From the UHGV virus genome UHGV-1799913: a stretch of DNA of 13,009 nt. One strand, given 5' to 3'. The DNA comes from a virus. The first letter of the stretch is position 1. Each line of letters opens with the position of its first letter. Under the pieces are notes generated by a model. That model was not told the DNA's origin and searched no databases. It worked only from the letters and a program-made list of their open reading frames with translations. Positions 166-13,009 of this stretch are shown here, in pieces. Made by a program: the position numbers and the translations under genes.

Positions 166-320
166 GCTGCCACCTGCTTTTCGTTAAGTTCTTCAGCCAG
201 TCGTTGCGCCTTCAGTGGGTTGGTAACGACATCACCCCACGGCAGCAACCATCCGTTTTTCTCTTTGAGCCAGGGAAGGCGCAGTGTGCCAACCCTGATG
301 TCGTCGTGAGCGTGAGTCAT
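162..320 (-). CDS. hypothetical small phage protein (52 aa)
   Basis: Minus-strand ORF MTHAHDDIRVGTLRLPWLKEKNGWLLPWGDVVTNPLKAQRLAEELNEKQVAA, below the 60-aa track cutoff. GGAG about 8 nt upstream of the ATG; ATGA stop/start overlaps with both neighbours. No family recognised. Confidence 0.4.
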   Translation of the reverse strand: MTHAHDDIRVGTLRLPWLKEKNGWLLPWGDVVTNPLKAQRLAEELNEKQVAA

Positions 321-2147: not shown

Positions 2148-2165
2148 TGTTAAATCCCTCAAAAA

Positions 2166-2450
2166 TTAAAACGGGCAGCCGGTACGGTGTTCCCAGTCGT
2201 ATTCCGCCTGGGCGTAAGCAACTACCGAAATGAAATCGTTGTAGGCCTCGCCAGCTTTATCGCTGCGAAGCCCTTCGTATGGGCTGGAGTCTATCGGGAT
2301 CGTGAAGTGGAAGAGGCCGGACGGCTCTTTAGGCATCATGTCGATGATTTTCTGCGCCCGGTCGTCGATCCACTTCTCTTTCTCGTCGGTGATCTGCTGC
2401 TCAGCCCAGCGCCGATCTTCGATGCGGTCGTAAGTGAGGTATGCGTTCAT
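2166..2450 (-). CDS. gam: Gam-like protein (putative RecBCD inhibitor)
   Basis: Position immediately upstream of bet; N-terminus MNAYLTYDRIEDRRWAEQQITDEKEK resembles lambda Gam short form ([30 protein letters not shown], recalled). GAGG RBS before the ATG at 2450. Confidence 0.6.
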   Translation of the reverse strand: MNAYLTYDRIEDRRWAEQQITDEKEKWIDDRAQKIIDMMPKEPSGLFHFTIPIDSSPYEGLRSDKAGEAYNDFISVVAYAQAEYDWEHRTGCPF

Positions 2451-2457
2451 GGTTGCC

Positions 2458-3429
2458 TCAGTAATGAATTTTCGCGCAGGGGATCAGGTCATCTTTCAGA
2501 GCGGTAAGCACTTCGATAGCCTGCTCGCGGGTTAAGCTGGTTTGGCTGGTGAGCGCGTTAACGATGTTGGTGCCGACCGTCTTGCGGTGCTTAACGTCAG
2601 CTTCACGCTTTGCCTGCTCATCGGCGAGGCGCTTCTCTTCGGCCAGGCGGGCATCTTCGGCCTGTTTGGCCTTCAGGCGCTCGGCTTCAACCGCCGTGGC
2701 TTTTTCGCGTTCCGCCCGGGCTTCCGCTTCCTGCTTCTCGCGAGCTGCACACTGTTCCGCTTCGACGCGCTGGCGCTCCGCCAGTTCAGCGCGGGCTTTC
2801 TCTTCGGCTTCACGGCGCGCTGCGGCTTCAATCTCCGCTTTGTGCTTCGCTTCGGCATCGCGGCGGGCTTGTTCTGCCGCTTCCTGTTTCAGCCGCTCAT
2901 CACGTTCACGCTGAGCCTGTTCCGCCAGACGGCGCTGCTCTTCGCGGTCACGGTCAAAATCCTTGTTCATCAGTAGAGCCATTTCGTGGTCCGCTTCGAA
3001 CTTGGCAGCCAGCTCCTGATCGAACCTGATGTTCATCTCCAGCGCTTCGGCGTGCATCGCGTTCATGGCTTCTTCAGCCTTAATGCGTTCCTGCTCGGCT
3101 TCCCATTCGGTGAGTGGGCGGCGGGTCGCATCGCGCAGCTCGTCGCAGGCATCAACGAATCGCTTAATTTCGGCCTCAGCCGGACGCACAGCCTCTTTCA
3201 GGCGCTTCAGGTACTCACGGCCCGGCTTTTCGATTGCCGTCTTGCTGCGGGACACCTGCGCTGCCAGAGAGGCAACACGGTCACGGCCTTTCTTCGTGGA
3301 CAGGTCCGACACTTCGTTTACAGCCTGGCGGATTTGCTCAAGGTACGCGTCAAGGCCGCCCGCTACGTAAAGCACTGGGGCCTGTTCCGGCTTGATTTCG
3401 ATGACAGTTAAGTCCGTTACTTCGCTCAT
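2458..3429 (-). CDS. coiled-coil phage protein with a long ER/K-rich helical segment (possibly DUF1351-like)
   Basis: Track ORF 2458..3543. Start moved to the internal ATG at 3429 (MSEVTDLTVIEIK...), which is preceded by AGGAGA and avoids overlap with the upstream gene. Contains roughly 120 aa of almost pure E/R/K/A/Q (EEQRRLAEQAQRERDERLKQEAAEQARRDAEAKHKAEIEAAARREAEEKARAELAERQRVEAE...). Confidence 0.6.
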   Translation of the reverse strand: MSEVTDLTVIEIKPEQAPVLYVAGGLDAYLEQIRQAVNEVSDLSTKKGRDRVASLAAQVSRSKTAIEKPGREYLKRLKEAVRPAEAEIKRFVDACDELRDATRRPLTEWEAEQERIKAEEAMNAMHAEALEMNIRFDQELAAKFEADHEMALLMNKDFDRDREEQRRLAEQAQRERDERLKQEAAEQARRDAEAKHKAEIEAAARREAEEKARAELAERQRVEAEQCAAREKQEAEARAEREKATAVEAERLKAKQAEDARLAEEKRLADEQAKREADVKHRKTVGTNIVNALTSQTSLTREQAIEVLTALKDDLIPCAKIHY

Positions 3430-3499
3430 GGTTTCTCCTGAAATTTGGATGTGCAGATCCCGCCCGCGTAATGCCAGGCCGAACGGTTGAATAGGGTGG

Positions 3500-3709
3500 T
3501 TAGTGCTGGATAGGGTTGCCGTGACCGTCAAGAAGGACGTCAATCACGCAGTCACTGAGTCGGATTATTTCTGCGTCAGTGTGCAGGTATACCCATTTGC
3601 GCTCCTGAATGACTGCTGAGACGCGATATGTGCGGCCTTCATGCAATGCCATCATGCCGGGCGTGACGCACTGGCGAATGAGCGGGGTGGTGCCGTAGTG
3701 GTTGATCAT
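3500..3709 (-). CDS. hypothetical small phage protein (69 aa)
   Basis: Track ORF; GAGGTGAAGG RBS before the ATG at 3709; ATGA overlap with the upstream gene stop. No family recognised. Confidence 0.5.
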   Translation of the reverse strand: MINHYGTTPLIRQCVTPGMMALHEGRTYRVSAVIQERKWVYLHTDAEIIRLSDCVIDVLLDGHGNPIQH

Positions 3710-3864
3710 GCCTTCACCTCAACCTGTTCCAGGAGGCCAGCGATATTCATCTGTTGGCGGTTCATCGTCAGCTTTTCACGCGGGTTAGATACCGACGTCA
3801 GCTGCCACTCGTTATCGTTGAGCTTTTTGGCGGTGTACTGCTTGCCGTTGTGGGTGACTGTCAT
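3706..3864 (-). CDS. hypothetical small phage protein (52 aa)
   Basis: Internal start of track ORF 3706..3906: ATG at 3864 (MTVTHNGKQYTAKKLNDNEWQL...) preceded by AAGGTGGTG, 1 nt after the stop of the upstream membrane-protein gene. Confidence 0.45.
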   Translation of the reverse strand: MTVTHNGKQYTAKKLNDNEWQLTSVSNPREKLTMNRQQMNIAGLLEQVEVKA

Positions 3865-3865
3865 C

Positions 3866-4075
3866 TCACACCACCTTGAATAAGAACCAGCCCATACCGC
3901 ACACAATCAGGCCCACAATGGTTATTGCGGAAGACATGCGTACATGGTCAATGGCTAGTTTTGAAAGTGGCTGGCGATGTTCTTTTTTCGTCAGCGAGTT
4001 GATTGCTATGCCGAGCAGAAACGTCCCGACAAACCATAATGCGTATATCTTTAAGCCCAACTCCAAATCACTCAT
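3866..4075 (-). CDS. small membrane protein (69 aa, two predicted TM helices)
   Basis: Track ORF MSDLELGLKIYALWFVGTFLLGIAINSL...ITIVGLIVCGMGWFLFKVV has two hydrophobic stretches; AAGAGGA RBS before the ATG at 4075. Sits where lambda carries kil/cIII/sieB-type small genes. Confidence 0.55.
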   Translation of the reverse strand: MSDLELGLKIYALWFVGTFLLGIAINSLTKKEHRQPLSKLAIDHVRMSSAITIVGLIVCGMGWFLFKVV

Positions 4076-4206
4076 AAATCCTCTTGGCCTTATCGCGGCG
4101 AACGGAACGGTTAATACAAGACTTCAACGCATTTATTCAGTGTTTCAATGGGCGGTGGATGGCCGCCGGTTTTCATAACTAAGCCGCCTCGGTGAAGCGA
4201 CTGAGG

Positions 4207-4232
4207 TATGAAAAAGCCCTCCGGAGAGGGCT
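4207..4232 (-). terminator. putative rho-independent terminator (minus strand)
   Basis: Minus strand reads GCCCTC-TCCG-GAGGGC followed by TTTTT (plus 4211-4231), directly after the stop of the 50-aa peptide gene. Confidence 0.5.
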
Positions 4233-4383
4233 ATGTGTTTCGCTTAATCATTGGGTAAGCCAGAGCAATTACACCTGCCACTAATACCCCGTCAGCCAGC
4301 ATCGACATCAACTTCCCGGTGAAATCGACAGCAATCACCAGGAAGAGGAGGACGCCGATAATCAACCAGCGCAATTTATCCAT
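4231..4383 (-). CDS. small hydrophobic membrane peptide (50 aa)
   Basis: Hand-translated minus-strand ORF MDKLRWLIIGVLLFLVIAVDFTGKLMSMLADGVLVAGVIALAYPMIKRNT, below the track cutoff. Its ATG overlaps the TerB-like stop (ATGA); strongly hydrophobic; followed by a terminator. Confidence 0.4.
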   Translation of the reverse strand: MDKLRWLIIGVLLFLVIAVDFTGKLMSMLADGVLVAGVIALAYPMIKRNT

Positions 4384-4808
4384 CAGATATAAGCGTCGAG
4401 TGATAACTGAAGAGCCTGAGCGATTTTCTTCAGCTGTTTTTCTTCGTCTTCGCCGATGCCGTCGTTATCGGCTACGTCAAGGCACAGGCAGAGCACATCA
4501 ACTGCGTCTGGAGTATCTGCCACATCTGCAAGTTCGCGCATTGCCTGGGCATTAGCAGAGCGAGGGGACGCTTCGTACTGTGCGCGAATGTTGCTGCTCA
4601 TGATGGCGATCTCACCTGCGAAAGCAGAGAACGCTGGTTTTGCCTGAATGGTTTTCTCCAGCGTTGCAATTTCTGACGCATCACAAGTACCGTCTGCATA
4701 AGCGATCGAGTAACAGCCCCACACCGTTGCTTCAACTGCGTCGCGGTTTTCCATCTTCTTCACTTCGACGATCGCCTTGCGTGCTTTTTTCTTAAACAGT
4801 CCGAACAT
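4383..4808 (-). CDS. TerB-family (tellurite-resistance TerB-like) protein, 141 aa
   Basis: Two ADG/acidic repeats (AYADGTCDASEIATLEK and DVADNDGIGEDEEKQLKKIAQAL) and an MFGLFKK N-terminus resemble E. coli TerB (MSFFDKVK...VASDGVSSEEK...AKSDGNFDDDEK, recalled). AAGAGGG RBS before the ATG at 4808. First sizeable gene downstream of the presumed pL. Confidence 0.55.
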   Translation of the reverse strand: MFGLFKKKARKAIVEVKKMENRDAVEATVWGCYSIAYADGTCDASEIATLEKTIQAKPAFSAFAGEIAIMSSNIRAQYEASPRSANAQAMRELADVADTPDAVDVLCLCLDVADNDGIGEDEEKQLKKIAQALQLSLDAYI

Positions 4809-5035
4809 TTGACTACCCTCTTGGTTTAAGCCATCAACTTGATGGCGACATTTGACTTACCGTCAGCCCCTCGTAAAGAGCTGCTGGTAAATCGTGTTGC
4901 CATAATTGCCGCTCCTCCTGAGCCCGCCTATGGTCCGACGCATGGTTTACTGTCGCGCCGTTCGACTGACCGAATCTCCACTTCGCTGCTGGCTAACTTC
5001 GCTCAGCTGTCGATGTTTCGTTTCGATGGGGTGAA

Positions 5036-5110
5036 TTTAGCGTGATGCTAAATTATGCGCAATAGCAAAATGCTAAATTGTTGAATGGTTTTATTTAGCG
5101 TATTGATTAA
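5036..5110. promoter_or_regulatory. OL-like operator cluster / presumed pL region
   Basis: Three 17-mers matching TTTAGC-N5-GCTAAA: 5036-5052 tttagcgtgatgctaaa (perfect half-sites), 5061-5077 aatagcaaaatgctaaa, 5094-5110 tttagcgtattgattaa. Lies between the cI terminator and the leftward operon. Confidence 0.45.
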
Positions 5111-5149
5111 TAAGCGATTAAAAATTTACAGCGAAGGAATTCGGGACGT

Positions 5150-5173
5150 AAAAAAGCCCGCGCGATGGCGGGC
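5150..5173 (-). terminator. putative rho-independent terminator downstream of the repressor gene
   Basis: Minus strand: GCCCGC-CATCGC-GCGGGC stem-loop followed by TTTTTT (plus A-run 5150-5155), about 20 nt after the cI stop. Confidence 0.5.
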
Positions 5174-5193
5174 TTGAGGGGTTTTGCGTGAGG

Positions 5194-5871
5194 TTATGGG
5201 ATGTTTAGTATTTTGGCATCAACCACAACGCCGATGATTTTGCAGTTTCCATTAATTTCTAGCATTGGATATGCGGGGTTAAGGGGCTTTAGGAAGCGTC
5301 TGCCGGCATCGATTACAAGCTTCTTAAAGGTCGCTTCGTTATCGCCTTCTAGCTTCGCGACAACCAGCTTTCCGTTGCGCGGCTCGACTTCAGGATCAAC
5401 AAGTATCGCTGCTCCCTCGGGTATGCTCAGTCCAGCCGGGGAGGTCATAGAATCCCCTTTAACGTCCAGCCAGAATGAATCTTCTGAGCAGTCAACAGTC
5501 GTGTCATACCAGCGATCTATCGCTCTTCGGTGATAAGGTTCTACAGCTTCCATCCATTGCCCCGCGCTTACCCAGCTGATTACAGGATAACTTCCTTTTG
5601 TCTCGTTCAGTCCTCGAAATGAAACGTTCGAAGGTTCTTCACTGGCGTGTAAAACATCCATCCAGCCAAAAGGCAGATCAAGCGCAGTTTCAATTTTGCG
5701 AGCCATCTTATCGCCGATATTGCGATGAGGGTTTGGTCCCAGTAGCTGGCTAAGCGCAGCCGGACTTGTCTCGATGAGCTCGGCAAACTGCGCTTTGGTC
5801 ATTCCAGACTCGTGCTGACGCTTCTCGTACAGCGCTTCCAGGTTGGCTTTTCTGATTTCTTTATTTTCCAT
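5194..5871 (-). CDS. cI: CI-like prophage repressor, LexA/S24 peptidase family (HTH plus autocleavage domain)
   Basis: From ATG 5871: MENKEIRKANLEALYEKRQHESGMTKAQFAELIETSPAALSQLLG (HTH), an Ala-Gly linker site (WVSAGQW), and a C-terminal S24 domain with GDSM (Ser) and a downstream Lys (VVAKLEG). Divergent to the cro-like gene and flanked by operator-like repeats. The track start at 5988 is a TTG inside the operator region and is rejected. Confidence 0.8.
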   Translation of the reverse strand: MENKEIRKANLEALYEKRQHESGMTKAQFAELIETSPAALSQLLGPNPHRNIGDKMARKIETALDLPFGWMDVLHASEEPSNVSFRGLNETKGSYPVISWVSAGQWMEAVEPYHRRAIDRWYDTTVDCSEDSFWLDVKGDSMTSPAGLSIPEGAAILVDPEVEPRNGKLVVAKLEGDNEATFKKLVIDAGRRFLKPLNPAYPMLEINGNCKIIGVVVDAKILNIP

Positions 5872-5889
5872 ACCTGCATTGTTACTGCT

Positions 5890-5955
5890 TTTAGCAAAAT
5901 GATAAATGTGCAAATTGCTAAATGATGCTTGCGTAGTATTTAGCATAACGCTAAA
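5890..5955. promoter_or_regulatory. OR-like operator cluster with divergent promoters (pRM/pR equivalents)
   Basis: 17-mers 5939-5955 tttagcataacgctaaa (perfect inverted repeat TTTAGC-N5-GCTAAA) and 5890-5906 tttagcaaaatgataaa, plus a weaker one around 5906-5922, in the 116-bp gap between the divergent cI and cro-like starts. Confidence 0.5.
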
Positions 5956-5987
5956 CTCCAAATCAAACGACTCACCCGGAGACACCA

Positions 5988-6221
5988 ATGAGCACTGAAC
6001 TACACCGCTGGCGCAAGGCCGCCACTACCGACGAATGGGCGCAGCTCGCAAAGTTGGCTAACACGACGCCAGGTTACCTGGACCAGATCGCCTACGGAAA
6101 TCGCCGGGCATCTCCAGAAATGGCATCTGCTATCGAGAAAGGCACGAAGAATTTTCACCGCCAGGCTCCGGTCCTAAAAGAAAGCCTGGTATTCGCATCG
6201 CCGCGTGATACTGCGGCCTAA
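5988..6221 (+). CDS. Cro-like small HTH DNA-binding protein (first gene of the rightward operon)
   Basis: 77 aa; GGAG 6 nt before the ATG; HTH-like segment DEWAQLAKLANTTPGYLDQIAYGNRRASPEMASAIEKGT; divergent from cI across the operator region. Confidence 0.6.
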   Translation: MSTELHRWRKAATTDEWAQLAKLANTTPGYLDQIAYGNRRASPEMASAIEKGTKNFHRQAPVLKESLVFASPRDTAA

Positions 6222-6238
6222 CCACGAAAGGGAAAGCA

Positions 6239-6784
6239 ATGCATTCACTTGCGTATCAACAAGGTAACAAATTTTCGCCAACGGCGATGATTTACCAGAA
6301 TCGCCGGGAGCCTGATTCCACGGCGTTAAACATCGATGGGATCCGCGCAGCTGTTCGCGCCTGGGCAGCTGATTGCCGAAGCCGTGAATTTGTCGCCGCG
6401 CTGATCGTGGAAGAGTGGCGGGCGTCCGGCGGAACCGGTCTGGATATCCCGACTGACTCGCACCGCCAGATGCAGAAAGTGTTTCGATGGATTGATGGTG
6501 ATACCGAATACGCCGCCAACAACATTCGCCAGCTGGCCCCGGCAATCATGTCGGTCCTGCCGCTGGAGTACCGAAACCGTCTGGCGCCGCAGAACGACAC
6601 GATGTCGCTGATCGCCTCTGCGATGAAAGAGTGTGCCGAGGCTAAACAGGCCGTGCTGCTGGACGCTCCAGAGCATCAGAAGCTCAAAGAGGTAAGCGAG
6701 GGTATAGCGTCGCTGTTCCGCCTCATGCCGGAGCAGGTAGGAACGCTGATGACGATGGTTACATCGATGCTGGGGGTTATATGA
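6239..6784 (+). CDS. YdaT-like protein (Rac/CP-933P YdaT family, reported as a CII functional analogue)
   Basis: EEWRASGGTGLDIP...HRQMQKVFRWIDGDTEYAANNIRQLAPAIMSVLPLEYRNRLA parallels E. coli YdaT as I recall it (EEYLRQGGGELPLV...YHRWLKGETKTQREKIQKLIPAILAILPRELRHRL). Lies in the cII position after the cro-like gene. Confidence 0.6.
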   Translation: MHSLAYQQGNKFSPTAMIYQNRREPDSTALNIDGIRAAVRAWAADCRSREFVAALIVEEWRASGGTGLDIPTDSHRQMQKVFRWIDGDTEYAANNIRQLAPAIMSVLPLEYRNRLAPQNDTMSLIASAMKECAEAKQAVLLDAPEHQKLKEVSEGIASLFRLMPEQVGTLMTMVTSMLGVI

Positions 6785-6869
6785 GAGGCACAAGAAAAGA
6801 AAAAGCCCTTGAAGCGGTAACTTCAAAGGCCCTTATCACACTGTGTTACGCCAAGTAACGGGAGTAAGT

Positions 6870-7778
6870 ATGTCAAACACCGCTGAAATAATCAATTTCC
6901 CAAATAAAACCGAACAACCGGGAGGTCGTATGGCCGACCTGTCGAACGGGTATACCAAGGTCGCTAACGAGATCCAACAGCTTAAGCCTCGCCTGAGACT
7001 GTCAGGCCGGGAATGGCAATGTTTTGAGGCGGTGATCTGGCTTACCTACGGCTGGAACAAGAAACAGGACCGCGTGACAAATACGGTTATTGCCGAGCTT
7101 ACGGGCCTGAGCGATACGCATGTATCGGACGCGCTTAAGTCTCTCGCAGAACGCAAAATCATCTTTTCACAGAAGCAGGGCATGATGAAAATCGTCGGTG
7201 TAAACACTGACCTTTCAGCATGGATTTTAGACAAACCGGAAACGGGAAGAAAATTCCCGAAAACGGGAAAATCCTTCCCGAAATCAGGAATAACCTTCCC
7301 GAAAACGGTAGACACCCAATACAAGAACAAGAACAGTATTAAAAGATCTTCGTCCGAGAATTCTGACGAATCCTCTGACGCACGTCTGAAGAAATTTTTA
7401 TCAACTCATCCTGAAGCTGCGGTCTACACACCATCCGGTGCGAAGTGGGGCTCTGCTGAAGACCTCGAGACAGCTAAGTGGATTTCCTCCAGGGTGAAGC
7501 TGATTAACCCAACCTGCAAAGCCCCGGACATGACCTCCTGGTCTAACACTGTTCGCCTGATGCGCCAGATAGACAACCGGTCGCACCAGGACATCTGCGC
7601 GCTGTATGACTGGGCTAGCAAACACCACTTCTGGCAGACCAACATCCTGAGTCCCGAAAGCCTGCGTAAGCAGTGGGACAAGCTGACAATGCAGCGTAAC
7701 GCCGGAGGTGAGCAGCGCGCTGTCAAGCCAGATCTGGACTTCAACAACACTGACTGGGCCTATGGGGTGATCCGATGA
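6870..7778 (+). CDS. O: replication initiator protein O-like
   Basis: Start at ATG 6870 (GGAG RBS) inside track ORF 6843..7778. N-terminus MSNTAEIINF..., the LTYGWNK motif and the C-terminal DLDFNNTDWAYGVI resemble lambda O (MTNTAKILNF..., ...TDW.YG at the C-terminus, recalled). Contains the iteron array; stop overlaps the P start (ATGA). Confidence 0.85.
   Translation: MSNTAEIINFPNKTEQPGGRMADLSNGYTKVANEIQQLKPRLRLSGREWQCFEAVIWLTYGWNKKQDRVTNTVIAELTGLSDTHVSDALKSLAERKIIFSQKQGMMKIVGVNTDLSAWILDKPETGRKFPKTGKSFPKSGITFPKTVDTQYKNKNSIKRSSSENSDESSDARLKKFLSTHPEAAVYTPSGAKWGSAEDLETAKWISSRVKLINPTCKAPDMTSWSNTVRLMRQIDNRSHQDICALYDWASKHHFWQTNILSPESLRKQWDKLTMQRNAGGEQRAVKPDLDFNNTDWAYGVIR
7233..7312. repeat. origin-of-replication iterons (ori-lambda-like) inside the O-like gene
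   Basis: Four repeats of a dyad-containing about 17-bp unit at exact 21-bp spacing (starts 7233, 7254, 7275, 7296): aaaccggaaacgggaag / ttcccgaaaacgggaaa / ttcccgaaatcaggaat / ttcccgaaaacggta. Encodes the in-frame peptide repeat FPKTGK/FPKSG/FPKT, as iterons do in lambda O. Confidence 0.7.
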
Positions 7779-8464
7779 AATCTCTTGCAGAGCAGATGCG
7801 TAACCACGACCGCGAGCAGATGAGCCGCATGGCCCATAACCTGCCAGAGCAGTACCAGGAGTGCGCGCCGGTCGAGCAGGTGGCGCAGGTATTCAACAAG
7901 CTGTTCAACGAGCTGCGCGCCGCGTTCCCGGCCAGCATGGCGAACTTCCGCACCCAGGAAGACCTGAACGAATTCCGCCGTCAGTGGCTGCTGGCGTTTC
8001 AGGAGAACGGGATCCACACCATGGCTCAGGTCGATGCCGGCATGCGCATTGCCCGCCGCCAGGAGCGCCCATTCCTGCCGTCGCCGGGCCAGTTCGTCGC
8101 CTGGTGCAAGCAGAGCGGCGGCGCGCTGGGCGTCAACGTTGACCAGGTGATCGCCGAATACTGGGACTGGCGTAACCGCTCGTTCGAATTCATCTCCAGC
8201 GAGCAATTTCCATGGTCGCAGCCGGTCATGTACCACATTTGCGTAGAATTGCGCCACCGCAGCACCGAGCGCCAGTTAACGCATGGTGAACTGGCACGCG
8301 AGGCAGGCGATCTGCTGGACATGTGGGAAAGGCGCGTCACCGAGGGTAAGCCAGTGCCGCCGGTACGCCGGGCTATTGCCGCACCAGCTGCCGAGCAAGG
8401 GCCGACGCCGATCCAGCTGCTGCTGGCCAAGTACAACCGCAACAAGTCGAACGGGATGGTGTGA
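7775..8464 (+). CDS. P: replication protein P-like (DnaB helicase loader)
   Basis: MKSLAEQMRNHDREQMSRMAHNLPEQY...VEQVAQ...FPAS.AN...E.NE.RRQWLLAFQENGI.TMAQV.AGMRIARRQERPFLPSPGQFVAWCKQ is near-collinear with the lambda P N-terminal half (MKNIAAQMVNFDREQMRRIANNMPEQY...RPFLPSPGQFVAWC, recalled). ATGA overlap with the O stop. Confidence 0.9.
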   Translation: MKSLAEQMRNHDREQMSRMAHNLPEQYQECAPVEQVAQVFNKLFNELRAAFPASMANFRTQEDLNEFRRQWLLAFQENGIHTMAQVDAGMRIARRQERPFLPSPGQFVAWCKQSGGALGVNVDQVIAEYWDWRNRSFEFISSEQFPWSQPVMYHICVELRHRSTERQLTHGELAREAGDLLDMWERRVTEGKPVPPVRRAIAAPAAEQGPTPIQLLLAKYNRNKSNGMV

Positions 8465-8465
8465 C

Positions 8466-8810
8466 ATGAACATAACAATCCGTGAGCAGGTGCTGGCAGC
8501 CCTGCGCAACAACCCAGGGTTGAACAACGCCAAACTGGCAGGGCTTATCGGCATGGACACCAAAAAGATATCCGGAACGGTGAGCACGCTGCTGGCAGAC
8601 GGCCTGATCCGCTGCGAAGGAAAATACGGCCAGCGCCTTTACAGCCTGACCAGCTACGGAATGCGCTTCGCCCCTGACACGATACCTGGCATGAAGCAGG
8701 GTAAGTCGAAGTTAATTCAGCGGACGGACACAAACGTGATCTGCCAGGAGTGCCGCAACAGCGCGGCTATGAAGCGTGTATTGATGGTTTGGGGGAGGGT
8801 AGGGGTATGA
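8466..8810 (+). CDS. small winged-helix-type DNA-binding protein (114 aa), nin-region gene
   Basis: Start at ATG 8466 (MNITIREQVLAALRNNPGLNNAKLAGLIGMDTKKISGTVSTLLADGLIRCEG...) inside track ORF 8283..8810. The helix-turn-wing pattern resembles MarR-like winged-helix proteins; the start sits 2 nt after the P stop. Confidence 0.5.
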   Translation: MNITIREQVLAALRNNPGLNNAKLAGLIGMDTKKISGTVSTLLADGLIRCEGKYGQRLYSLTSYGMRFAPDTIPGMKQGKSKLIQRTDTNVICQECRNSAAMKRVLMVWGRVGV

Positions 8811-9403
8811 AATTATTTGAGATGGAAGGTTTTCTGCGTGGCAAGTGCATTCCACGCGATCTGAAGGTTAACGAAACCAACGCCGAGTATCTTGTGCGTA
8901 AATTTGCTGAAGCGGAGGCAAAGTGCGCGGCGCTGGCAGCGGAGAATGCGGAGCTGAAACACGCAATGGCCGTAACTCTTGAGCATGTGTCGGTCACGGA
9001 TGCAGGGCAGGCTGGTGTTGCTGCAATGATTATCAACGATGCCCTACACCACAGCGAAACCCCAGCCACCGACGCTTTCCTTGCTGAAGTACTGGCGCAG
9101 GGGGTGAAATCGCCATCCAATGCCGTTCAGTCAGTAATTGCAGAGCGTCAACGCCATCAATCAGCTGAGGGATGGACGCCTGAGCATGATGACCAGTACA
9201 GCAAATCGCAGTTACTGTGGGCATCCTCATGCTACGTACTGAATGCCATCCATCCATTTAACCGCATTCCATTTGACTGGCCGTGGACACCAGAATGGTG
9301 GAAGCCGACAAATCCACGCCGTGACCTTGTGAAAGCTGGCGCACTTATTCTGGCTGAACTTGAAAGAATTGACCGCGCCGCTGGCATCGGTAAGGGGGAA
9401 TGA
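8807..9403 (+). CDS. phage protein with N-terminal coiled coil and a C-terminal domain resembling DUF550 / dATP-dGTP pyrophosphohydrolase-like proteins
   Basis: Start at ATG 8807 (MKLFEMEGFLRG...) after a G-rich RBS, overlapping the upstream stop. The C-terminal WTPEHDDQYSKSQLLWASSCYVLNAIHPFNRIPFDWPWTPEWW is reminiscent of the DUF550 family common in enterobacterial prophage nin regions; family assignment is from memory only. Confidence 0.45.
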   Translation: MKLFEMEGFLRGKCIPRDLKVNETNAEYLVRKFAEAEAKCAALAAENAELKHAMAVTLEHVSVTDAGQAGVAAMIINDALHHSETPATDAFLAEVLAQGVKSPSNAVQSVIAERQRHQSAEGWTPEHDDQYSKSQLLWASSCYVLNAIHPFNRIPFDWPWTPEWWKPTNPRRDLVKAGALILAELERIDRAAGIGKGE

Positions 9404-9648
9404 TGGGTAAGGTAACTTTTGTCGTCGATTTCAAGGATGGTGAAGAGCCAGCGGTATCAGCGGCAACCGAGATTCTGGGTGGTCGTCTTTCTTCTGTTTT
9501 ATGGGCCGACTATCGCGATGATTTTTTCACCGAAGAAGAGGTCGATATGGTTCGTTCTGCGTTCGATGATGTGGCGCTGACTACTTCTGAAGATGAGGAA
9601 GAATCACAAGCTGAAATCATCAAGAAAATGGAGCTTATGACGCTATGA
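9400..9648 (+). CDS. small acidic phage protein (82 aa)
   Basis: Track ORF; many D/E residues (TSEDEEESQAEIIKK, FTEEEVDMVRSAFDD); ATGA overlap with both neighbours. Confidence 0.5.
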   Translation: MMGKVTFVVDFKDGEEPAVSAATEILGGRLSSVLWADYRDDFFTEEEVDMVRSAFDDVALTTSEDEEESQAEIIKKMELMTL

Positions 9649-9923
9649 CCACTATTACCAGAGAGCTTATCGCCGCATATCTTAACGGTGAAGTTAAAAC
9701 GCTCACTAACAGCGAACAGAAAGAGCTGGCGCGTATCGCGCTGGCATCGCTTGAGGATGAAATAAAACTACTCCCTGTAGGGGTTATGAGCGAGTCAGCC
9801 TTTTATAGGCTTGAACGCAGCGAGTCACGTTTTATTGCGCTGTGGCCTCGTCCTGGTATCTTTTTGCCGCGCCCGCGTCCAGATGATGGCGTTATCGTTT
9901 ATGCAAAGGTTGAGGGGGCGTGA
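9645..9923 (+). CDS. hypothetical phage protein (92 aa)
   Basis: Track ORF; translationally coupled (ATGA) to the flanking genes. No family recognised. Confidence 0.5.
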   Translation: MTTITRELIAAYLNGEVKTLTNSEQKELARIALASLEDEIKLLPVGVMSESAFYRLERSESRFIALWPRPGIFLPRPRPDDGVIVYAKVEGA

Positions 9924-10231
9924 TGGCTAGCCTACTCAACTTCCTCGGCATAGATTCCCGGCGTAGCAGCGTGACTCTCGTTGAATACAAATATGACCCA
10001 GAGGCGCGAGAGAAGGTCTCAAAGTATCTCGTCAGGCATACGTCCAGCTTTCGCGGAACAACGCTGGAGCAATACGTCACCGTAGAGCGCGACCGTTATG
10101 GCGCATTCAAACCTGTAGTCGCGCTGGACGATTTCCCCAGCGGTATGAGTGACAGGGAGTCAATGCTGAAACTGGCCGATTGGCTGCATCGCCTTGGCGT
10201 AGCGATTGAAGATGAATGGAGTACACCATGA
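9920..10231 (+). CDS. hypothetical phage protein (103 aa)
   Basis: Track ORF; translationally coupled (ATGA) to the flanking genes. No family recognised. Confidence 0.5.
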   Translation: MMASLLNFLGIDSRRSSVTLVEYKYDPEAREKVSKYLVRHTSSFRGTTLEQYVTVERDRYGAFKPVVALDDFPSGMSDRESMLKLADWLHRLGVAIEDEWSTP

Positions 10232-10359
10232 AAACTAACAACCACCCGGCGCACGGCCCTGTATCACTCGATCGCCTGCACCAGATAAGCGAAATACTCA
10301 GCAAAGCAGCAGCGCAAAGCGACGGCGGTAATCTCGGCTACGCAATGGCAGGTGATTGA
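10228..10359 (+). CDS. hypothetical small protein (43 aa), last gene of the coupled chain
   Basis: Hand-translated MKTNNHPAHGPVSLDRLHQISEILSKAAAQSDGGNLGYAMAGD. ATG overlaps the upstream stop (ATGA). Below the track cutoff; no other support. Confidence 0.3.
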   Translation: MKTNNHPAHGPVSLDRLHQISEILSKAAAQSDGGNLGYAMAGD

Positions 10360-10420
10360 TGAAGTTTTAGCAGGTAGGAATGCGGTGCGGGTAGAGCCAA
10401 ATTTGATGTATAAAACGAAG

Positions 10421-10447
10421 AAGGGGCCGACATTTGTCGACCCCTTA
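10421..10447 (-). terminator. stem-loop terminator candidate at the 3' end of the tRNA-like element
   Basis: Minus strand AAGGGGTCGACAAATGTCGGCCCCTT (10-bp stem with one mismatch) followed by a T-rich tract CTTCGTTTTAT. It could also act on plus-strand read-through from the upstream operon. Confidence 0.4.
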
Positions 10448-10539
10448 AATAGGGTGCGGGGTTCGAACCCGCGGTACGGGTTTATAGCCCGTACGCCTCA
10501 TTATCAGTGAGGTGCCATCAACCACTCGGCCAACCCTCC
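10448..10539 (-). tRNA. tRNA-like element, type II (long variable arm), anticodon GAU by fold; imperfect acceptor stem, no encoded CCA; possible pseudogene or non-canonical phage tRNA
   Basis: Minus strand GGAGGGT-TG-GCC-GAGTGGTTGAT-GGC-A-CCTCA-CTGATAA-TGAGG-CGTACGGGCTATAAACCCGTACC-GCGGG-TTCGAAC-CCCGC-ACCCTAT. Cloverleaf has a canonical T-arm (GGTTCGAAC) and Ser/Leu-like D-loop (GCCGAGTGGTTGA), a 7-bp variable-arm hairpin, and a 5-bp anticodon stem with loop CU-GAU-AA. The acceptor has a G2-A71 mismatch and a G1-U72 pair. Confidence 0.5.
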
Positions 10540-10629
10540 GTTGTACCTTGCAAGCAAGGGGTGAAAGAAATATAGCATTATGATTTAAAAAATAAAGTGA
10601 ATTATCATCGAATAACATTACCAAAAATA

Positions 10630-10680
10630 GCCATGACCACACTTTTCTTTTGTATAATCCCTCCCAAAGTATCGAGGGGG
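10630..10680 (+). promoter_or_regulatory. putative promoter (extended -10 TGTATAAT) with adjacent inverted repeat
   Basis: tgtataat at 10651-10658 followed directly by ccctccc-N-gaggggg (10659-10680), then AAGGAGAAG RBS and the GTG start at 10702. Confidence 0.35.
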
Positions 10681-10701
10681 ACTCATCAAGGAGAAGATAA
10701 A

Positions 10702-11043
10702 GTGAAATATTTGGCGATCACGTTGTTAGGAATTGGCTTTCTTATGCCCCATGCCGTTGAAGCAAAGGAATATGTATGCTCTGGAATAGCAAGGAGTATG
10801 ACCTCAAATGAAGTAAAATCCGGCGAAGTAAAGGCAAATATAACTGACATCGGAAATTCAATAACAGTTAACTTTGGGACCATTTCTTACACCACAAGCA
10901 AGATTAGGCCAGAAAAACCGGAAGGAAAGACATACCCATCTGGTGCGACTAAAGAGGGCAATATTATACAAAGACGTGGAGATGGTGATTACCGATTCTT
11001 TCAAATGTCTCAGGGTGATGTAGTGCAATTTACCTGCAAATAA
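10702..11043 (+). CDS. small secreted/periplasmic protein (113 aa) with Sec signal peptide; moron-type cargo gene
   Basis: GTG start at 10702 after AAGGAGAAG inside track ORF 10597..11043. N-terminus MKYLAITLLGIGFLMPHAVEA-KE has a hydrophobic core and an AxA cleavage motif. Mature protein has two Cys (YVCSG, FTCK). AT-rich codon usage by eye. Confidence 0.55.
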   Translation: MKYLAITLLGIGFLMPHAVEAKEYVCSGIARSMTSNEVKSGEVKANITDIGNSITVNFGTISYTTSKIRPEKPEGKTYPSGATKEGNIIQRRGDGDYRFFQMSQGDVVQFTCK

Positions 11044-11142
11044 AATTGAACGAATTTCAACCAGGTTAGGCGGTTTTTATTTTTGGCTGTGCCCCCGTTC
11101 GCTGTAGCACTGGTGAGGGCTAACCTGCCGGAACTATGCCAG

Positions 11143-11198
11143 TCGAAACAAATCGCGGCCTGACCTATAATCCCCTCCATAACTCAAGGGGATTTTTT
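11143..11198 (+). promoter_or_regulatory. putative promoter (-10 TATAAT at 11166-11171) with 7-bp inverted repeat sequestering the SD
   Basis: tataat followed by ATCCCCT-N10-AGGGGAT (11170-11193), then TTTTTT and the ATG at 11199. The AGGGGA arm is also the only SD-like element for the downstream gene. Confidence 0.35.
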
Positions 11199-11381
11199 AT
11201 GTCAAACGAAGAAATGACACCTGCCGAAAAATACAAAGCGGCGAGGAAGCGATATAAAAAACACTGGCTTCAATCCGATATAGCAAACGCTAAGCGCTTT
11301 GAGGCTGATGATGTGGCCCCTGTAGATGGTTACAGGTCTCCTTACGAAACGAGGAAAAAAAGAGGGAGAACAGCAGATTAA
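11199..11381 (+). CDS. small basic protein (60 aa), first gene of the moron cassette
   Basis: Start at ATG 11199 inside track ORF 11136..11381: [25 protein letters not shown]...RKKRGRTAD, Lys/Arg-rich. Stop overlaps the next start (TAATG). Confidence 0.45.
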
Positions 11382-11635
11382 TGTCACATTTTAATATCGC
11401 AGAAAAATCGAAAGAAGAGCAGGACAAGGCTAACGTGGACCTGGCTGCCAGTGGCGTAGCGTACAAAGAGCGCCTGAACATGCCGGTTATCGCTGAGGTG
11501 GTGATGCGTGAGCAGCCCGAGCATTTGCGTGATTACTTCCTTGAGCGTCTGAAGTTTTATCGCGAGAAGTCGATAGATTTACCAAGGGCATCCGATCCGC
11601 GGTACATGGAAATGGCTGATTCTAATAAAAAATAA
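11381..11635 (+). CDS. hypothetical protein (84 aa)
   Basis: Track ORF; start coupled to the upstream stop. No family recognised. Confidence 0.5.
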
Positions 11636-11686
11636 GCCCTAACGTGTTGATGACCTTATCAGACCTAAACAGGAGGTTTTTCTAAA

Positions 11687-12226
11687 GTGATTAATATCAT
11701 TGTTGATTCCAATGCTTGGAATTTTTTACATGTGAGTGGGATCTCCTTAAGCAACGAGCTTCTTAGCGATTATAACTTTCAGATAACATTAGAGGTGTCT
11801 CGTGAATTGCAGGAGTTAGTGGGCAAGGAAGGGAAGGAAGCTCTTTATGAATTCTTTGTAAGTGAGACTCAGTCGCTTGAAGAGCCCTTATGCTATTTTG
11901 GTTTTTACAATGAGTCAGTGCCTGCTGATGAACAGCGGTTTGGTGGATTTGGTGTTGGCGGGTTCGCATCTGTTCATCAAGATGATTATTTTCAGAAAAC
12001 ATTCCGCCAAATAAAATCATCAAAGCGTGGTATTTATTATGGCAATGAAGCTGACATGCTGATCGGGTCAAGAGGAATTGGGAACACTTTCATACTAACA
12101 GAAGATAATAATAAGTCAGGCCCGATGAAAGAGGCTGAGAACACTATCTTTGTTTCAAGAAAATTTCCTATGACTGTGGAGCAGTTTAAGGAATATCTTG
12201 ATCTTGAAATCTCAAAAACTCTTTAG
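11687..12226 (+). CDS. hypothetical protein (179 aa) with possible PIN-like nuclease motifs
   Basis: GTG start 10 nt after AGGAGG. N-terminal hydrophobic strand with Asp (IIVDSNAW), a downstream Glu-containing helix (TLEVSRELQEL), and a C-terminal NEADMLIGSRGIGNTFILTED segment recalling the VapC/PIN pattern (D...E...D...T-x-D). Assignment is motif-level inference only. AT-rich by eye. Confidence 0.5.
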   Translation: MINIIVDSNAWNFLHVSGISLSNELLSDYNFQITLEVSRELQELVGKEGKEALYEFFVSETQSLEEPLCYFGFYNESVPADEQRFGGFGVGGFASVHQDDYFQKTFRQIKSSKRGIYYGNEADMLIGSRGIGNTFILTEDNNKSGPMKEAENTIFVSRKFPMTVEQFKEYLDLEISKTL

Positions 12227-12302
12227 TTACTGCGCTTTGATTTTTCATAATCACTCCGCCATAATCATGTCATCGGAGCCTGAACAACTCCGGTGACTTC
12301 TT

Positions 12303-12326
12303 CGCATTTAAGGGGACTTAAATGCG
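12303..12326. repeat. perfect 10-bp inverted repeat with 4-nt loop
   Basis: cgcatttaag-ggga-cttaaatgcg (12303-12326), no T-tract on either side; lies at the junction between the AT-rich cassette and the NinB-like gene. Confidence 0.6.
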
Positions 12327-12413
12327 ACCACAATCTGAACTCATCGCCTTGTCACAGATGCAGACATGCACCTGCGATTTTCTGCATTCTGCGGTTTCCG
12401 TTAAGGAGGCCGT

Positions 12414-12869
12414 ATGACTCTGCCAGCAGACGGCATCAAACTCCATCGCGGCAACTTCGCGGCCATTGGCCAGCAGATTCAGCCATTGCTGGATGCCGGG
12501 CAATGCTTCCGCCTGCAAGTCAAACCGTGGCGCGAGAAGCGCAGCCTGTCGCAGAACGCGCTCAGCCACATGTGGTACACGGAAATTAGCGAGTACCTCA
12601 TCGCCCGCGGCAAGACCTTCGCTACGCCTGAGTGGGTCAAAGACGCGATGAAGCACACCTATCTCGGCTATGAGAGTAAAGACCGGGTAGACGTCGTGTC
12701 CGGAGAGGTGACCACAGTTCAATCTCTCCGCCATACCGCCGATCTGGAAACCGGCGAGATGTACATTTTCCTGTGCAAAGTCGAAGCCTGGGCGATGAAC
12801 ATCGGCTGTCACCTGACCATCCCGCAGAGCTGCGAGTACCAGCAGCTGCGCGATAAGCAGGAGGCCTGA
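12414..12869 (+). CDS. ninB: NinB-like recombination protein (Orf family)
   Basis: AAGGAGG RBS before the ATG. KPWREKRSLSQNALSHMWY resembles the NinB signature around RSLDQN..LW in lambda NinB (recalled). Position in the nin region downstream of P. Confidence 0.7.
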   Translation: MTLPADGIKLHRGNFAAIGQQIQPLLDAGQCFRLQVKPWREKRSLSQNALSHMWYTEISEYLIARGKTFATPEWVKDAMKHTYLGYESKDRVDVVSGEVTTVQSLRHTADLETGEMYIFLCKVEAWAMNIGCHLTIPQSCEYQQLRDKQEA

Positions 12870-13009
12870 TGTCTACTCCGCTTTCCCGCGTCATCACCAA
12901 CGAAATATTCCGCGTTCCGGCGCGCCGCCAGCGCAAGCCCGTGGTTAATCCGTCCGACATCCCGACACTGAAAGGCTACACCGCCCGCCTGGTGGATCAG
13001 AAATGGCTG
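12869..13009 (+). CDS. hypothetical nin-region protein, 5' part only (runs off the window end)
   Basis: ATG at 12869 overlaps the ninB stop (TGATG), with AGGAGG upstream; open frame MSTPLSRVITNEIFRVPARRQRKPVVNPSDIPTLKGYTARLVDQKWL continues to the window end. Confidence 0.5.
   Translation, partial: MSTPLSRVITNEIFRVPARRQRKPVVNPSDIPTLKGYTARLVDQKWL

Follow-up and report, generated by a model that had tools for sequence, protein, structure and literature searches.

What the AT-rich stretch between two conserved parts of a lambda-like prophage consists of, and how it came to lie there, is the question raised by the locus described here. The locus is part of a 13,009-nt stretch of viral DNA (UHGV-1799913), analysed as a whole and called the window below, which is an Escherichia coli phi80/HK639-like (lambda-like) prophage. 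The whole block is 100% identical to prophages of strains EM18-18-42 and MLI104K1. The initial annotation saw it as a single piece of foreign cargo, bounded by a tRNA-like element and an inverted repeat, at a position where conversion or defence genes are often carried. We find instead an ordinary moron cluster with uncharacterised cargo (for the definition of morons, drawn from HK97 and HK022, see the review PMC3594210), and very probably a composite one, built by repeated recombination in a hypervariable slot. The compositional island is in itself routine, low-GC morons being already known in lambdoid phages; the main gain lies in the corrected boundaries and in the correction of the single-insertion picture.

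Base composition of the block

The AT-rich discontinuity reported for positions 10560-12330 is borne out by sliding-window GC and by third-position GC. GC content is 0.417 in this interval and 0.427 across 10360-12236, against 0.541 to the left (1-10359) and 0.561 to the right (12237-13009). The 1877-nt segment of lowest GC in the entire sequence starts at 10541 (GC 0.421), and segments of the same length lying entirely left of the block have a mean GC of 0.541 (sd 0.028, minimum 0.487). At third codon positions, orfA (0.36), orfB (0.39) and orfD (0.37) fall below the genes outside the cargo (0.42-0.59 in the early gene chain, 0.76 in ninB and up to 0.81 in neighbouring genes). The exception among the cargo genes is the theta gene, which is backbone-like (0.55) and not AT-rich. 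The cargo differs in GC from its neighbours (41.7-42.7% against 54-56%) in the manner of a moron, with theta as the exception at third positions.

Boundaries of the cargo

The alignment with related prophages proposed in the initial annotation places the predicted boundaries of the cargo at about 10350-10403 on the left and at 12236 on the right. On the right, nine loci become alignable exactly at 12236/12237, where a conserved 177-bp ninB leader begins (12237..12413, plus strand), a backbone element present in 71/71 ninB-matched contigs. The leader holds a -35/-10-like TTGATT-17-CATAAT (12237-12265), a 31-codon ORF (12322-12417) and a hairpin (12390-12414) that is predicted to sequester the ninB ribosome-binding site, and in one contig (L024) it is duplicated, with one copy on each side of the orfD gene. 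The first backbone gene to the right of the cargo is ninB/ybcN (12414..12869, plus strand), encoding an Orf-family recombination mediator (NCBIfam PRK09741, 263.9 bits; phrog_72).

The perfect 10-bp inverted repeat noticed earlier ahead of the ninB ribosome-binding site is confirmed and extends a little further than first stated, with 11-nt arms (12302-12312 and 12317-12327) that are 100% complementary around a 4-nt loop; as RNA it folds at -14.6 kcal/mol (z = -5.8), approximately 75 nt upstream of the ribosome-binding site. Its interpretation as an insertion end does not hold, since it sits 66 nt within the leader common to HK639, phi80, phage 82, CobraSix and others. The repeat is kept inside the leader in every relative examined and is thus backbone, not an insertion scar. 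It is annotated as IR4 in phi80 and as a possible regulator-binding site in phage 82.

The left junction lies in the remnant of a DUF550/551-type gene (10216..10402, plus strand), recognised by BLASTP, DNA alignment and megablast. The ORF at 10216-10359 represents the first approximately 41 in-frame codons of this gene, with residual homology to about codon 60, and matches the N-terminus of a 267-aa DUF551 protein of strain PCP06021 at 37/41 positions in BLASTP. An 11-nt deletion near 10349/10350 puts the gene out of frame, weak homology continuing to about 10402 in the DNA alignment, and megablast matches to many E. coli prophages stop at 10349. In these alignments the cargo has taken the place of the body of the DUF551-type gene.

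A variable slot upstream of ninB

The block occupies a variable slot, a known cargo hot spot, which extends from the early-right (pR-side) small-gene chain to the ninB leader. In phi80 the slot is empty, the leader lying approximately 40 nt past the last early gene. Among 71 viral contigs whose ninB shares 97% identity or more with that of the window, orfA and the tRNA-like gene were each found in 0/71, orfD in 1/71 and theta in 24/71, and slot contents are wholly different between phages with near-identical ninB. In 65 distinct relatives that share the ninB allele of the window, mean GC is 47.9% over the 1.2 kb preceding the leader, against 57.2% downstream, which indicates that the slot generally houses low-GC cargo. 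The particular cargo of the window is rare: of 5,426 complete E. coli genomes, two carry the entire block, 11 the tRNA-like gene with orfA and three orfD, and a tblastn search of deposited phage genomes found neither orfA nor orfD. Thus, as in a moron, the DNA is extra relative to related phages at the same position (empty phi80 slot; 71 contigs; 2/5,426), and these observations, together with the truncated DUF551-type gene, uphold the earlier proposal of cargo in a conserved backbone.

A tRNA-like gene at the left of the block

The tRNA-like element reported at the left of the block is confirmed as a 92-nt gene on the minus strand (10448..10539) by ARAGORN and by Rfam model RF00005 (46.4 bits; gathering score 29). 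It has a long variable arm, the anticodon GAU and no encoded CCA; its body is of class II and serine-like, a phage tRNA-Ser being the nearest match (77.5%). The gene fits the cloverleaf covariance model expected of a canonical elongator tRNA, and lacks both the fully paired 7-bp acceptor stem and the agreement between body class and anticodon that characterise one. In the seven RNA variants that make up our sample of the family, the acceptor end (G1.U72, a G2.A71 mismatch and U73) is invariant, the variable-arm and T stems are maintained by compensatory changes, and the anticodons differ (GAU, GAA or UAG). A host origin was rejected, as the gene resembles none of the E. coli tRNA genes.

The gene is followed by a GC-rich hairpin and T-run (10421..10446, minus strand; 11 pairs in the terminator scan; RNA fold -15.9 kcal/mol, z = -4.7), an equivalent of which is found after every member of the family; this hairpin would terminate the transcript of the tRNA-like gene, and it faces the early-right operon too. 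Directly 5' of the gene lies the leader palindrome CCTTGCTTGCAAGG (10546..10559, minus strand), which is kept in 6/7 variants and as RNA would fold into a 5-bp stem capped by a CUUG loop. The 17-mer leader palindrome was considered as a wider mobile motif and dropped: its extra matches in viral contigs (15 found, against approximately 12 expected by our own chance estimate) are coding, in differing frames. In the window, TGTATAA flanks the tRNA-like segment, whose left junction corresponds to the edge of the Klebsiella orfA cassette. A discrete mobile insert with target duplication was also rejected, other family members being without consistent flanking repeats.

The tRNA-like gene recurs beside theta genes and sometimes beside the PIN nuclease gene described below. 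It is the oddest item near the block, and the family merits separate study. We regard it as unlikely that the gene represents an undescribed phage RNA family other than an ordinary decoder, and the cluster a new RNA-protein accessory system; if this were true, the RNA might serve an anticodon nuclease or a PIN nuclease as decoy or substrate, be a mis-charging tRNA, or partner the theta and PIN genes.

orfA, a putative exported barrel

The 113-aa product of orfA (10702..11043, plus strand; GTG start) has a Sec-type signal peptide, presumably cleaved after AVEA, and an 8-stranded beta-barrel; Cys26 and Cys112 are invariant. The protein would reach the periplasm and there form a disulphide-closed 8-stranded barrel of the PliC/MliC/ACP type, a fold that we subjectively judge highly likely. 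As for its activity, the best candidate, put forward tentatively and with low subjective confidence, is binding or inhibition of a peptidoglycan hydrolase or another envelope-acting protein. Searches of orfA against Pfam, including the MliC model, and against PDB sequences gave no match even at E = 10.

The 5' edge of the orfA cassette (10646..10681, plus strand) consists of a TATAAT box (10653-10658) abutting a hairpin (10658-10681), and five orfA homologues are preceded by an unchanged TGTATAATCC, the rest of their upstream DNA being unrelated. Taken alone, the hairpin folds no better than shuffled sequences, and a good -35 was not found for this -10. Neither orfA nor orfD is followed by a convincing intrinsic terminator (fold past orfA, z = +1.1).

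orfB and a theta homologue

A promoter-like element, a hairpin and a T-run (11143..11198, plus strand) form the 5' edge of the orfB-theta cassette. The promoter-like TCGAAA-17-TATAAT (11143-11171; 10 of 12 matches; TATAAT at 11166-11171) runs into the hairpin (11169-11194; -10.1 kcal/mol, z = -1.7), after which the T-run extends to 11198. Both this element, annotated as a terminator in HK639, and the orfB-theta pair that follows are conserved in HK639, CobraSix and the Klebsiella phage ST846-OXA48phi9.2. The earlier statement that the block contains promoter-like elements of its own is sustained by the two perfect TATAAT boxes, both kept unchanged in relatives with unrelated upstream DNA, and not by the number of such sites, which is at chance level (4, against 3.8 expected in shuffles). 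With regard to a promoter and terminator of its own, as a moron would use for expression from the repressed prophage, the block shows conserved TATAAT boxes and a hairpin with T-run on the one hand, and on the other a promoter-like site count not above that of shuffles, no good -35 for orfA and no terminator past orfA or orfD.

The basic 60-aa product of orfB (11199..11381, plus strand) matches phrog_16632 at 3e-34, and its stop codon overlaps the start codon of theta (TAATG). The theta gene, orfC (11381..11635, plus strand), encodes an 84-aa homologue of the DNA polymerase III theta subunit of the P1 HOT type (PF06440, 2.6e-34), with scores above curated thresholds in Pfam (PF06440, 117.2 bits; cut-off 34.6) and NCBIfam (105.5 bits; cut-off 97) and PDB matches to HOT (1SE7, 5.5e-31, residues 3-77) and E. 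coli theta (1DU2, 9.2e-21). It is the only cargo gene assigned to a family by sequence. On this homology, the protein probably binds the host proofreading subunit epsilon, like P1 HOT, an assignment in which our subjective confidence is good.

orfD, a putative solitary PIN-fold nuclease

The last cargo gene, orfD (11687..12226, plus strand; GTG start), encodes a 179-aa putative solitary PIN-fold nuclease with an intact acidic tetrad: D7, E36, D123 and D140 do not vary among 20 sequences with identities as low as 47%, and in the structure model they sit at strand ends or helix starts. The model has the parallel beta-sheet core flanked by helices of the PIN fold; an insert at approximately residues 62-117, which carries the invariant motif EQRxxGFG, is poorly predicted at residues 71-117, and the best Foldseek E-value is a weak 0.027. 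No match was found among Pfam, NCBIfam and PADLOC models, and a profile search against the PDB returned only 1O4W (E = 0.076). Modelling suggests that orfD is a metal-dependent PIN endonuclease without a cognate antitoxin, and in our subjective view it is rather likely to be an active nuclease. RNA is the more likely class of substrate, because the closest folds are VapC RNases.

In the 11 orfD lineages sampled, a small DNA-binding antitoxin gene of the VapBC kind was not found directly upstream. The gene upstream of orfD is theta in 7/11 lineages and unrelated in the other four, namely a C5-methyltransferase gene, a DUF551-like gene or a gene for a 420-aa protein, with none identified for L023. 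An obligate pairing of theta with the PIN gene was rejected on account of these four lineages and of the background frequency of theta in the slot (34%). A 216-aa protein encoded after theta in GB089-type prophages was tried as a distant PIN relative and discarded (hhalign probability 0.1%). A literature search on theta-PIN pairs, and likewise on the palindrome of the ninB leader, found nothing specific.

Independent assortment of the cassettes

The picture of one insertion is contradicted by the finding that three or more cassettes recur apart from one another, in differing surroundings. From junctions in a few genomes, cassette A would span about 10403-11159 (the antisense tRNA-like gene and orfA), cassette B 11160-11363 (the promoter/terminator element and orfB) and cassette C 11364-12236 (theta and orfD). 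In ECCWS199 the tRNA-like gene and orfA adjoin dinI, and LT883142 carries the tRNA-like gene, orfA, orfB and part of theta, followed by another 3' theta end and DUF1367. Theta and orfD have unrelated left neighbours in L6-21, and Klebsiella prophages carry orfA without the tRNA-like gene in the same slot. The orfB-theta pair is accompanied by a gene for a 73-aa protein in HK639 and CobraSix, and in GB089 theta is followed by the gene for the 216-aa protein, unrelated to orfD. Exchange probably takes place via short conserved linkers, these being the TATAAT-hairpin edges, the theta gene itself and the ninB leader with its inverted repeat.

A mode of expression may be proposed. Transcription of orfA and of orfB-theta-orfD would each start at its own -10 element, and the hairpin and T-run at 11169-11198 would stop transcription arriving from upstream. 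Transcripts initiated at the abutting TATAAT would be without the 5' arm of the hairpin and would read through it.

Alternative explanations

The low GC, uniform across the block apart from theta, is what a single foreign island acquired in one event would show, and the tRNA-like gene at one edge, the perfect palindrome near the other and a 10-nt inverted match (10441-10450/12306-12315) that brackets the block could be taken as its ends. This explanation is very unlikely, being largely refuted by the independent assortment of sub-blocks with other partners; moreover, the palindrome is backbone common to phages without the block, and the inverted match is no more than chance would give in 2.2 kb and is not conserved around other tRNA-like members. 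Neither an integrase nor a transposase was found in or beside the block, where short repeats are only at chance level, as opposed to what a transposon, IS or integrative island would show. Native backbone, with a low GC imposed by coding or regulatory constraints and not by horizontal acquisition, would agree with the lower GC of the slot relative to its flanks in most relatives (47.9% against 57.2%) and with the frequency of theta in it (34%). We consider it extremely improbable, given that slot contents vary completely among phages with near-identical ninB, that the phi80 slot is empty, that the block truncates a gene and that orfA and orfD are very rare.

Two further explanations see a functional unit in the block. 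Theta and orfD could form a two-gene toxin-antitoxin or abortive-infection-type module of a prophage defence island, theta neutralising the PIN nuclease. A small gene does precede the PIN gene and is co-directional with it, the two overlapping by 4 nt in one Pantoea-type lineage; in 7/11 lineages, loci outside the ninB slot included, a theta gene is found no more than 1 kb upstream of the orfD homologue; the orfD fold is closest to VapC toxins; and AT-rich cargo slots are typical of defence genes. We nevertheless hold the module to be improbable. Four orfD lineages are without theta and have unrelated upstream genes, and theta occurs without orfD in the slot of 34% of ninB-matched phages, so that the theta-orfD enrichment is marginal (binomial p = 0.04, the lineages not being independent). 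In addition, theta is a bona fide HOT homologue whose known partner is epsilon, no DNA-binding antitoxin domain was found, and orfA, orfB, theta and orfD matched no known defence family in PADLOC-DB v2 at E up to 0.1. The lysogenic-conversion or defence role suggested in the initial annotation is therefore not supported, only the theta/HOT gene being assignable to a family by sequence, although some such role may be imagined for the block. Cooperation of the tRNA-like RNA with the PIN nuclease, as substrate, decoy or RNA antitoxin of a VapC-like tRNase with theta and orfA as passengers, is also very improbable. The two genes co-occur in the lineage of the window and in a Pantoea lineage, and the conserved aberrant acceptor end makes ordinary decoding doubtful; against this, the tRNA-like gene is missing from most orfD lineages, most E. 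coli copies of it are without orfD (11 genomes against three), PIN and theta genes are missing from the vicinity of the L058/L071 and L069 variants, and L076 has no PIN or theta match. The composite moron cluster is thus the explanation that we retain.

Implications

As a composite cluster, the block offers several leads. The PIN-fold nucleases may constitute a solitary family that is confined to Enterobacterales prophages and often lies downstream of HOT-like theta, and the orfA products may represent a very rare prophage-borne family of exported PliC/MliC-like barrels. If these barrels inhibit lysozyme or a phage peptidoglycan hydrolase, orfA would be a conversion or superinfection-exclusion factor. 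The slot also appears to present a clean natural case of cassette shuffling at short conserved linkers, and the tRNA-like genes, a probably odd family.

Comparison with known systems

Like MliC and PliC, the orfA product combines a signal peptide with a small antiparallel barrel of eight strands, and its invariant cysteines, in the first and last strands, correspond to the beta1-beta8 disulphide of that fold (PMC5507604). It differs in lacking the motifs SxSGAxY (loop 4) and YxxxTKG (strand 6) as defined there (PMC5507604), the sole motif-like stretch, Y78-PSGATKEG-86, being placed differently (strand 5 to loop), and its fold score is almost as high against Cap15 and other small barrels. With respect to VapC-type PIN ribonucleases (PDB 3ZVK, 5K8J, 6SD6), orfD is set apart by its failure to match Pfam PIN models, by its insert of approximately 55 residues with an invariant motif of its own, by the lack of an adjacent VapB-type antitoxin gene and by its restriction to Enterobacterales prophages, usually downstream of a theta gene. 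The orfC product matches both phage P1 HOT (PDB 1SE7, 2IDO) and E. coli HolE by sequence, but, unlike that of HOT, its gene lies in an early-right cargo slot of a lambdoid prophage and not in P1.

A close counterpart is the theta cassette at the same slot of Escherichia phage HK639 and Enterobacter phage CobraSix, in which a 73-aa gene follows theta in place of the PIN gene, and orfA and the tRNA-like gene are missing; both have a 60-aa gene translationally coupled to theta (approximately 78% amino-acid identity), the TATAAT-hairpin-T-run element before it and the conserved ninB leader after it. Finally, whereas a lambdoid moron is one promoter-gene-terminator unit, the block comprises at least three cassettes, and terminators are not evident after orfA and orfD. 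In common with lambdoid morons, it is extra DNA relative to related phages, differs in GC and is placed between conserved backbone genes, with a separate -10-like element at the start of every cassette and with a hairpin and T-run.

Composition and gene content of the block

The block and its flanks are 100% identical to prophages of E. coli EM18-18-42 and MLI104K1, and the annotated context is that of a lambdoid prophage: integrase, exo/bet/gam, a LexA-like repressor, O-/P-like replication genes and the small-gene chain precede the block, and ninB/ybcN, ninE, rusA, Q, lysis and terminase genes follow it. The plus strand of the block encodes orfA (10702-11043, 113 aa), orfB (11199-11381, 60 aa, phrog_16632), orfC (11381-11635, 84 aa), a member of the DNA polymerase III theta family (Pfam 2.6e-34; NCBIfam above cut-off), and orfD (11687-12226, 179 aa, phrog_26388, function unknown), after which ninB starts at 12414. 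PADLOC returned no match on the block.

The initial annotation had described an AT-rich insertion at 10560-12330, lying beside a tRNA-like element and ending at a perfect inverted repeat before ninB. As an observation this is confirmed by the GC profile and by the presence of both elements. In a 300-nt sliding profile, GC dips from 0.52-0.55 to 0.39-0.48 over approximately 10350-12300 and then rises to 0.55-0.58; segment values are 41.7% for 10560-12330 and 42.7% for 10360-12236, against 54.1% for the left 10.4 kb and 56.1% for the right flank. Of all 1877-nt windows in the sequence, GC is lowest in the one beginning at 10541, whereas comparable windows left of the block average 0.541 (sd 0.028), with none below 0.487. 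Likewise, third-position GC is 0.36 in orfA, 0.39 in orfB and 0.37 in orfD versus 0.76 in ninB, the theta gene being the exception (0.55). The tRNA-like gene is real (10448-10539, minus strand) and, although outside 10560-12330, belongs to the leftmost cassette, together with orfA. Among viral contigs with a closely matching ninB, the 1.2 kb upstream of the ninB leader average 47.9% GC versus 57.2% downstream; this slot is thus usually filled with low-GC cargo, and the version studied here falls within the most AT-rich 15%.

Boundaries of the cargo

At the left edge, the last gene of the small-gene chain is a broken DUF550/551-type gene (10216-10402), only the first ~41 codons of which are still in frame. 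Its 47-codon ORF (10216-10359) is a DUF550/551-type N-terminus with 37/41 identities to a 267-aa homologue; relative to the intact DUF551-type gene, an 11-nt deletion near 10349/10350 shifts the frame, and weaker homology runs to ~10402, ending at the terminator of the tRNA-like gene. Some 200 codons of the gene have been replaced by cargo, which is direct evidence of rearrangement at this edge. Further upstream in the chain, a 217-aa GTG-start ORF (8750-9403) matches many Ead/Ea22- and DUF551-like PHROG families; at its place, L006, another of the sequences compared, has an NCBI truncated pseudogene (10508-10640) and ~460 unannotated nt up to 11101. This region may be another recombination scar.

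The left junction itself carries TGATGTATAA (10404-10413), the conserved 5' edge of Klebsiella orfA cassettes (TGATGTATAATCC). This edge has a second site at 10646-10658, and TGTATAA occurs at 10407-10413 and 10651-10657, 244 nt apart, so that the 237-nt tRNA-like segment looks as if it had been inserted into the conserved orfA-cassette edge. No matching flanking repeats were found around other members of the tRNA-like family.

At the right edge, megablast against deposited phages matched only 12235-12450. In an alignment of nine loci (the window, HK639, phi80, phage 82, CobraSix, two more E. coli prophages and both copies in viral contig IMGVR_UViG_2506520035_000002, hereafter L024), homology starts at TTTGATTTT (12236/12237), and the loci are unrelated upstream of it. 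The 177-bp ninB leader (12237-12413) was found in 71/71 viral contigs whose ninB is ≥97% identical to that of the window. The inverted repeat lies inside this leader, which HK639, phi80, phage 82 and CobraSix share; it is IR4 in the phi80 annotation, and in the phage 82 record it is marked as a site where a regulator may bind, with putative -35 and -10 signals before it. The cargo therefore ends at 12236, ten bases past the orfD stop codon. The repeat is real, with 11-nt arms (12302-12312 and 12317-12327), but it is backbone and not the end of an insertion.

Besides the repeat, which in phage 82 has the same symmetry with different arm sequences, the leader contains a -35/-10-like pair (12237-12265), a 31-codon ORF (12322-12417) that corresponds to phage 82 orf33 and whose stop overlaps the ninB ATG, and a hairpin (12390-12414) in which the ribosome-binding site of ninB is sequestered. 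This combination suggests translational coupling or attenuation of ninB.

Independent assortment of cassettes

The block is not the single insertion initially proposed: parts of it recur in other combinations. The tRNA-like gene and orfA (10300-11159, 99% identity) adjoin dinI and DUF1367 in ECCWS199 and four more genomes. In LT883142-type prophages, whose left neighbour also differs, the match covers the tRNA-like gene, orfA and orfB and reaches two-thirds of the way into theta (11547), beyond which the 3' part of theta is another one and DUF1367 follows. In L6-21, theta, orfD and the leader (from 11364, 96.6% identity) follow a different 108-aa gene and an intact DUF551 gene. Klebsiella prophages without the tRNA-like gene have orfA homologues (71-74% identity) in the same slot, directly 3' of a DUF551-type gene and followed by theta. 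Additionally, orfB-theta is found with a 73-aa gene in HK639 and CobraSix, a 216-aa protein unrelated to orfD follows theta in GB089-type prophages, and the phi80 slot is essentially empty. The whole block occurs in 2 of 5,426 complete E. coli genomes, the tRNA-like gene plus orfA in 11 and orfD in 3; in the ninB-matched sample, theta occupies the slot in 34%, orfD in 1/71, and orfA and the tRNA-like gene in 0/71.

Homology between otherwise unrelated contexts starts at short conserved elements, namely TGTATAATCC before orfA and CTATAATCCCCTC with a hairpin and T-run before orfB, and further junctions lie within the theta gene (11364, 11547) and at the ninB leader. Cassettes would be swapped by recombination at these places. 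In L024, two copies of the ninB leader, each with the palindrome, flank an orfD-type PIN gene (4240-4480 and 5480-5735); this duplication looks like the footprint of cassette insertion via leader recombination, and such flanking copies would be the expected product of recombination at the leader linker. The block is not bounded by a recombinase gene, by terminal repeats or by any convincing target duplication.

Predicted regulatory elements within the block

The hairpin and T-run at 11169-11198 (-10.1 kcal/mol) is a terminator in the HK639 annotation, and its 5' arm directly adjoins a conserved TATAAT. If transcription began ~7 nt past this TATAAT, the RNA would lack the 5' arm, escape termination and also leave free the GGGG stretch ahead of the start codon of orfB. 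In front of orfA the arrangement is the same (TATAAT, C-rich arm, G-rich arm), except that there is no T-run. Promoter-like sites are not more numerous than in shuffled sequences, and the TATAAT elements stand as predicted promoters; RNA folding revealed no convincing terminator after orfA or orfD.

Gene products and the tRNA-like family

HOT of phage P1 and theta are established binders of the epsilon proofreading subunit. OrfC matches HOT (PDB 1SE7/2IDO; 5.5e-31, residues 3-77) and E. coli theta (9.2e-21), and is expected to bind epsilon as well. The stop codon of orfB and the start codon of orfC overlap (TAATG), and the coupled pair also occurs in HK639, CobraSix and a Klebsiella phage.

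OrfD has a PIN fold and is probably a metal-dependent nuclease. Its homologues form 26 clusters, all from Enterobacterales (Escherichia, Enterobacter, Raoultella, Scandinavium, Pantoea, Phytobacter, Dickeya) or their viruses and none with a Pfam domain; D7, E36, D123 and D140, and likewise an EQRxxGFG motif in an inserted segment, do not vary among sequences down to 47% identity. RNA is favoured as substrate only because the closest folds are RNases. A VapBC toxin in the family sense was ruled out, since no antitoxin-type gene lies alongside. Theta lies upstream of orfD on the same strand within 1 kb in 7/11 lineages and is missing from four; against the 34% background this enrichment is marginal (p = 0.04, the lineages not being independent), and the link is suggestive. 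The lineages with theta include Pantoea-type prophages (L013, L016), where the theta-PIN pair is found not in the ninB slot but near the integrase, within an operon of early-left type (cIII, ERF, SSB), the two genes overlapping by 4 nt in one case. Candidate roles of orfD are host take-over, exclusion or defence, and processing of replication or recombination intermediates.

OrfA has only about nine clusters of homologues among 5.8 billion plus 1.8 billion proteins searched. All have a hydrophobic N-terminus ending at an AxA-like site, and Cys26, Cys112 and a P-x-G-x-T-x-EGNIIQ core are invariant. We propose that the orfA protein is exported and has a barrel fold of the PliC/ACP type. A beta1-beta8 disulphide is common to the PliC/MliC/ACP family; MliC/PliC proper are defined by the motifs SxSGAxY and YxxxTKG, which ACP lacks although it inhibits lysozyme (PMC5507604). 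OrfA lacks both motifs as defined and has no sequence-level match to the family; inhibition of a peptidoglycan hydrolase is a tentative and rather doubtful assignment.

The tRNA-like family comprises seven sequence variants, with members in the window, L013 (2636-2728), L046 (431-517), L055 (4394-4486), L058, L069 (2987-3078), L071 (10536-10627) and L076. The gene has a cloverleaf fold whose variable arm is 7 bp long. None of the seven variants departs from the acceptor GGAGGGU/ACCCUAU (G1.U72, mismatched G2.A71, U73), none encodes CCA, and each has its own terminator; a 5' leader hairpin is found in six (not L076), and the variable-arm and T stems show compensatory substitutions. Five variants have the anticodon GAU; of the other two, one has GAA and one UAG. 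The gene resembles no host E. coli tRNA gene, its closest relatives among deposited phages are Rhizobium phage tRNA-Ser genes (77.5%), and the family is absent, at blastn sensitivity, from 50,697 deposited phage genomes. Class I anticodons on a serine-type body, with an acceptor end that is defective and yet conserved, are at odds with an ordinary decoder. In every case the gene lies where the cargo begins on the left, on the strand opposite to the early-right operon, and in 4/7 variants a theta gene is its divergent neighbour. In L069, the cargo beside it (501-2195, minus strand) encodes a 564-aa protein without a Pfam match, which could be a defence-type gene.

Relation to known systems

The finding as stated is of modest interest, the tRNA-like family and the theta-PIN association being the parts worth following. 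The block holds members of two protein families that are uncharacterised and of an odd family of RNAs. Like morons, it is extra DNA of deviant GC; a promoter and terminator of its own are present only in part, as predicted elements. Of the arrangements described so far, the orfB-theta cassette that precedes ninB in HK639 and CobraSix comes closest. What is new in the block is the way its cargo is combined, at a hot spot already known; it is no new kind of system.
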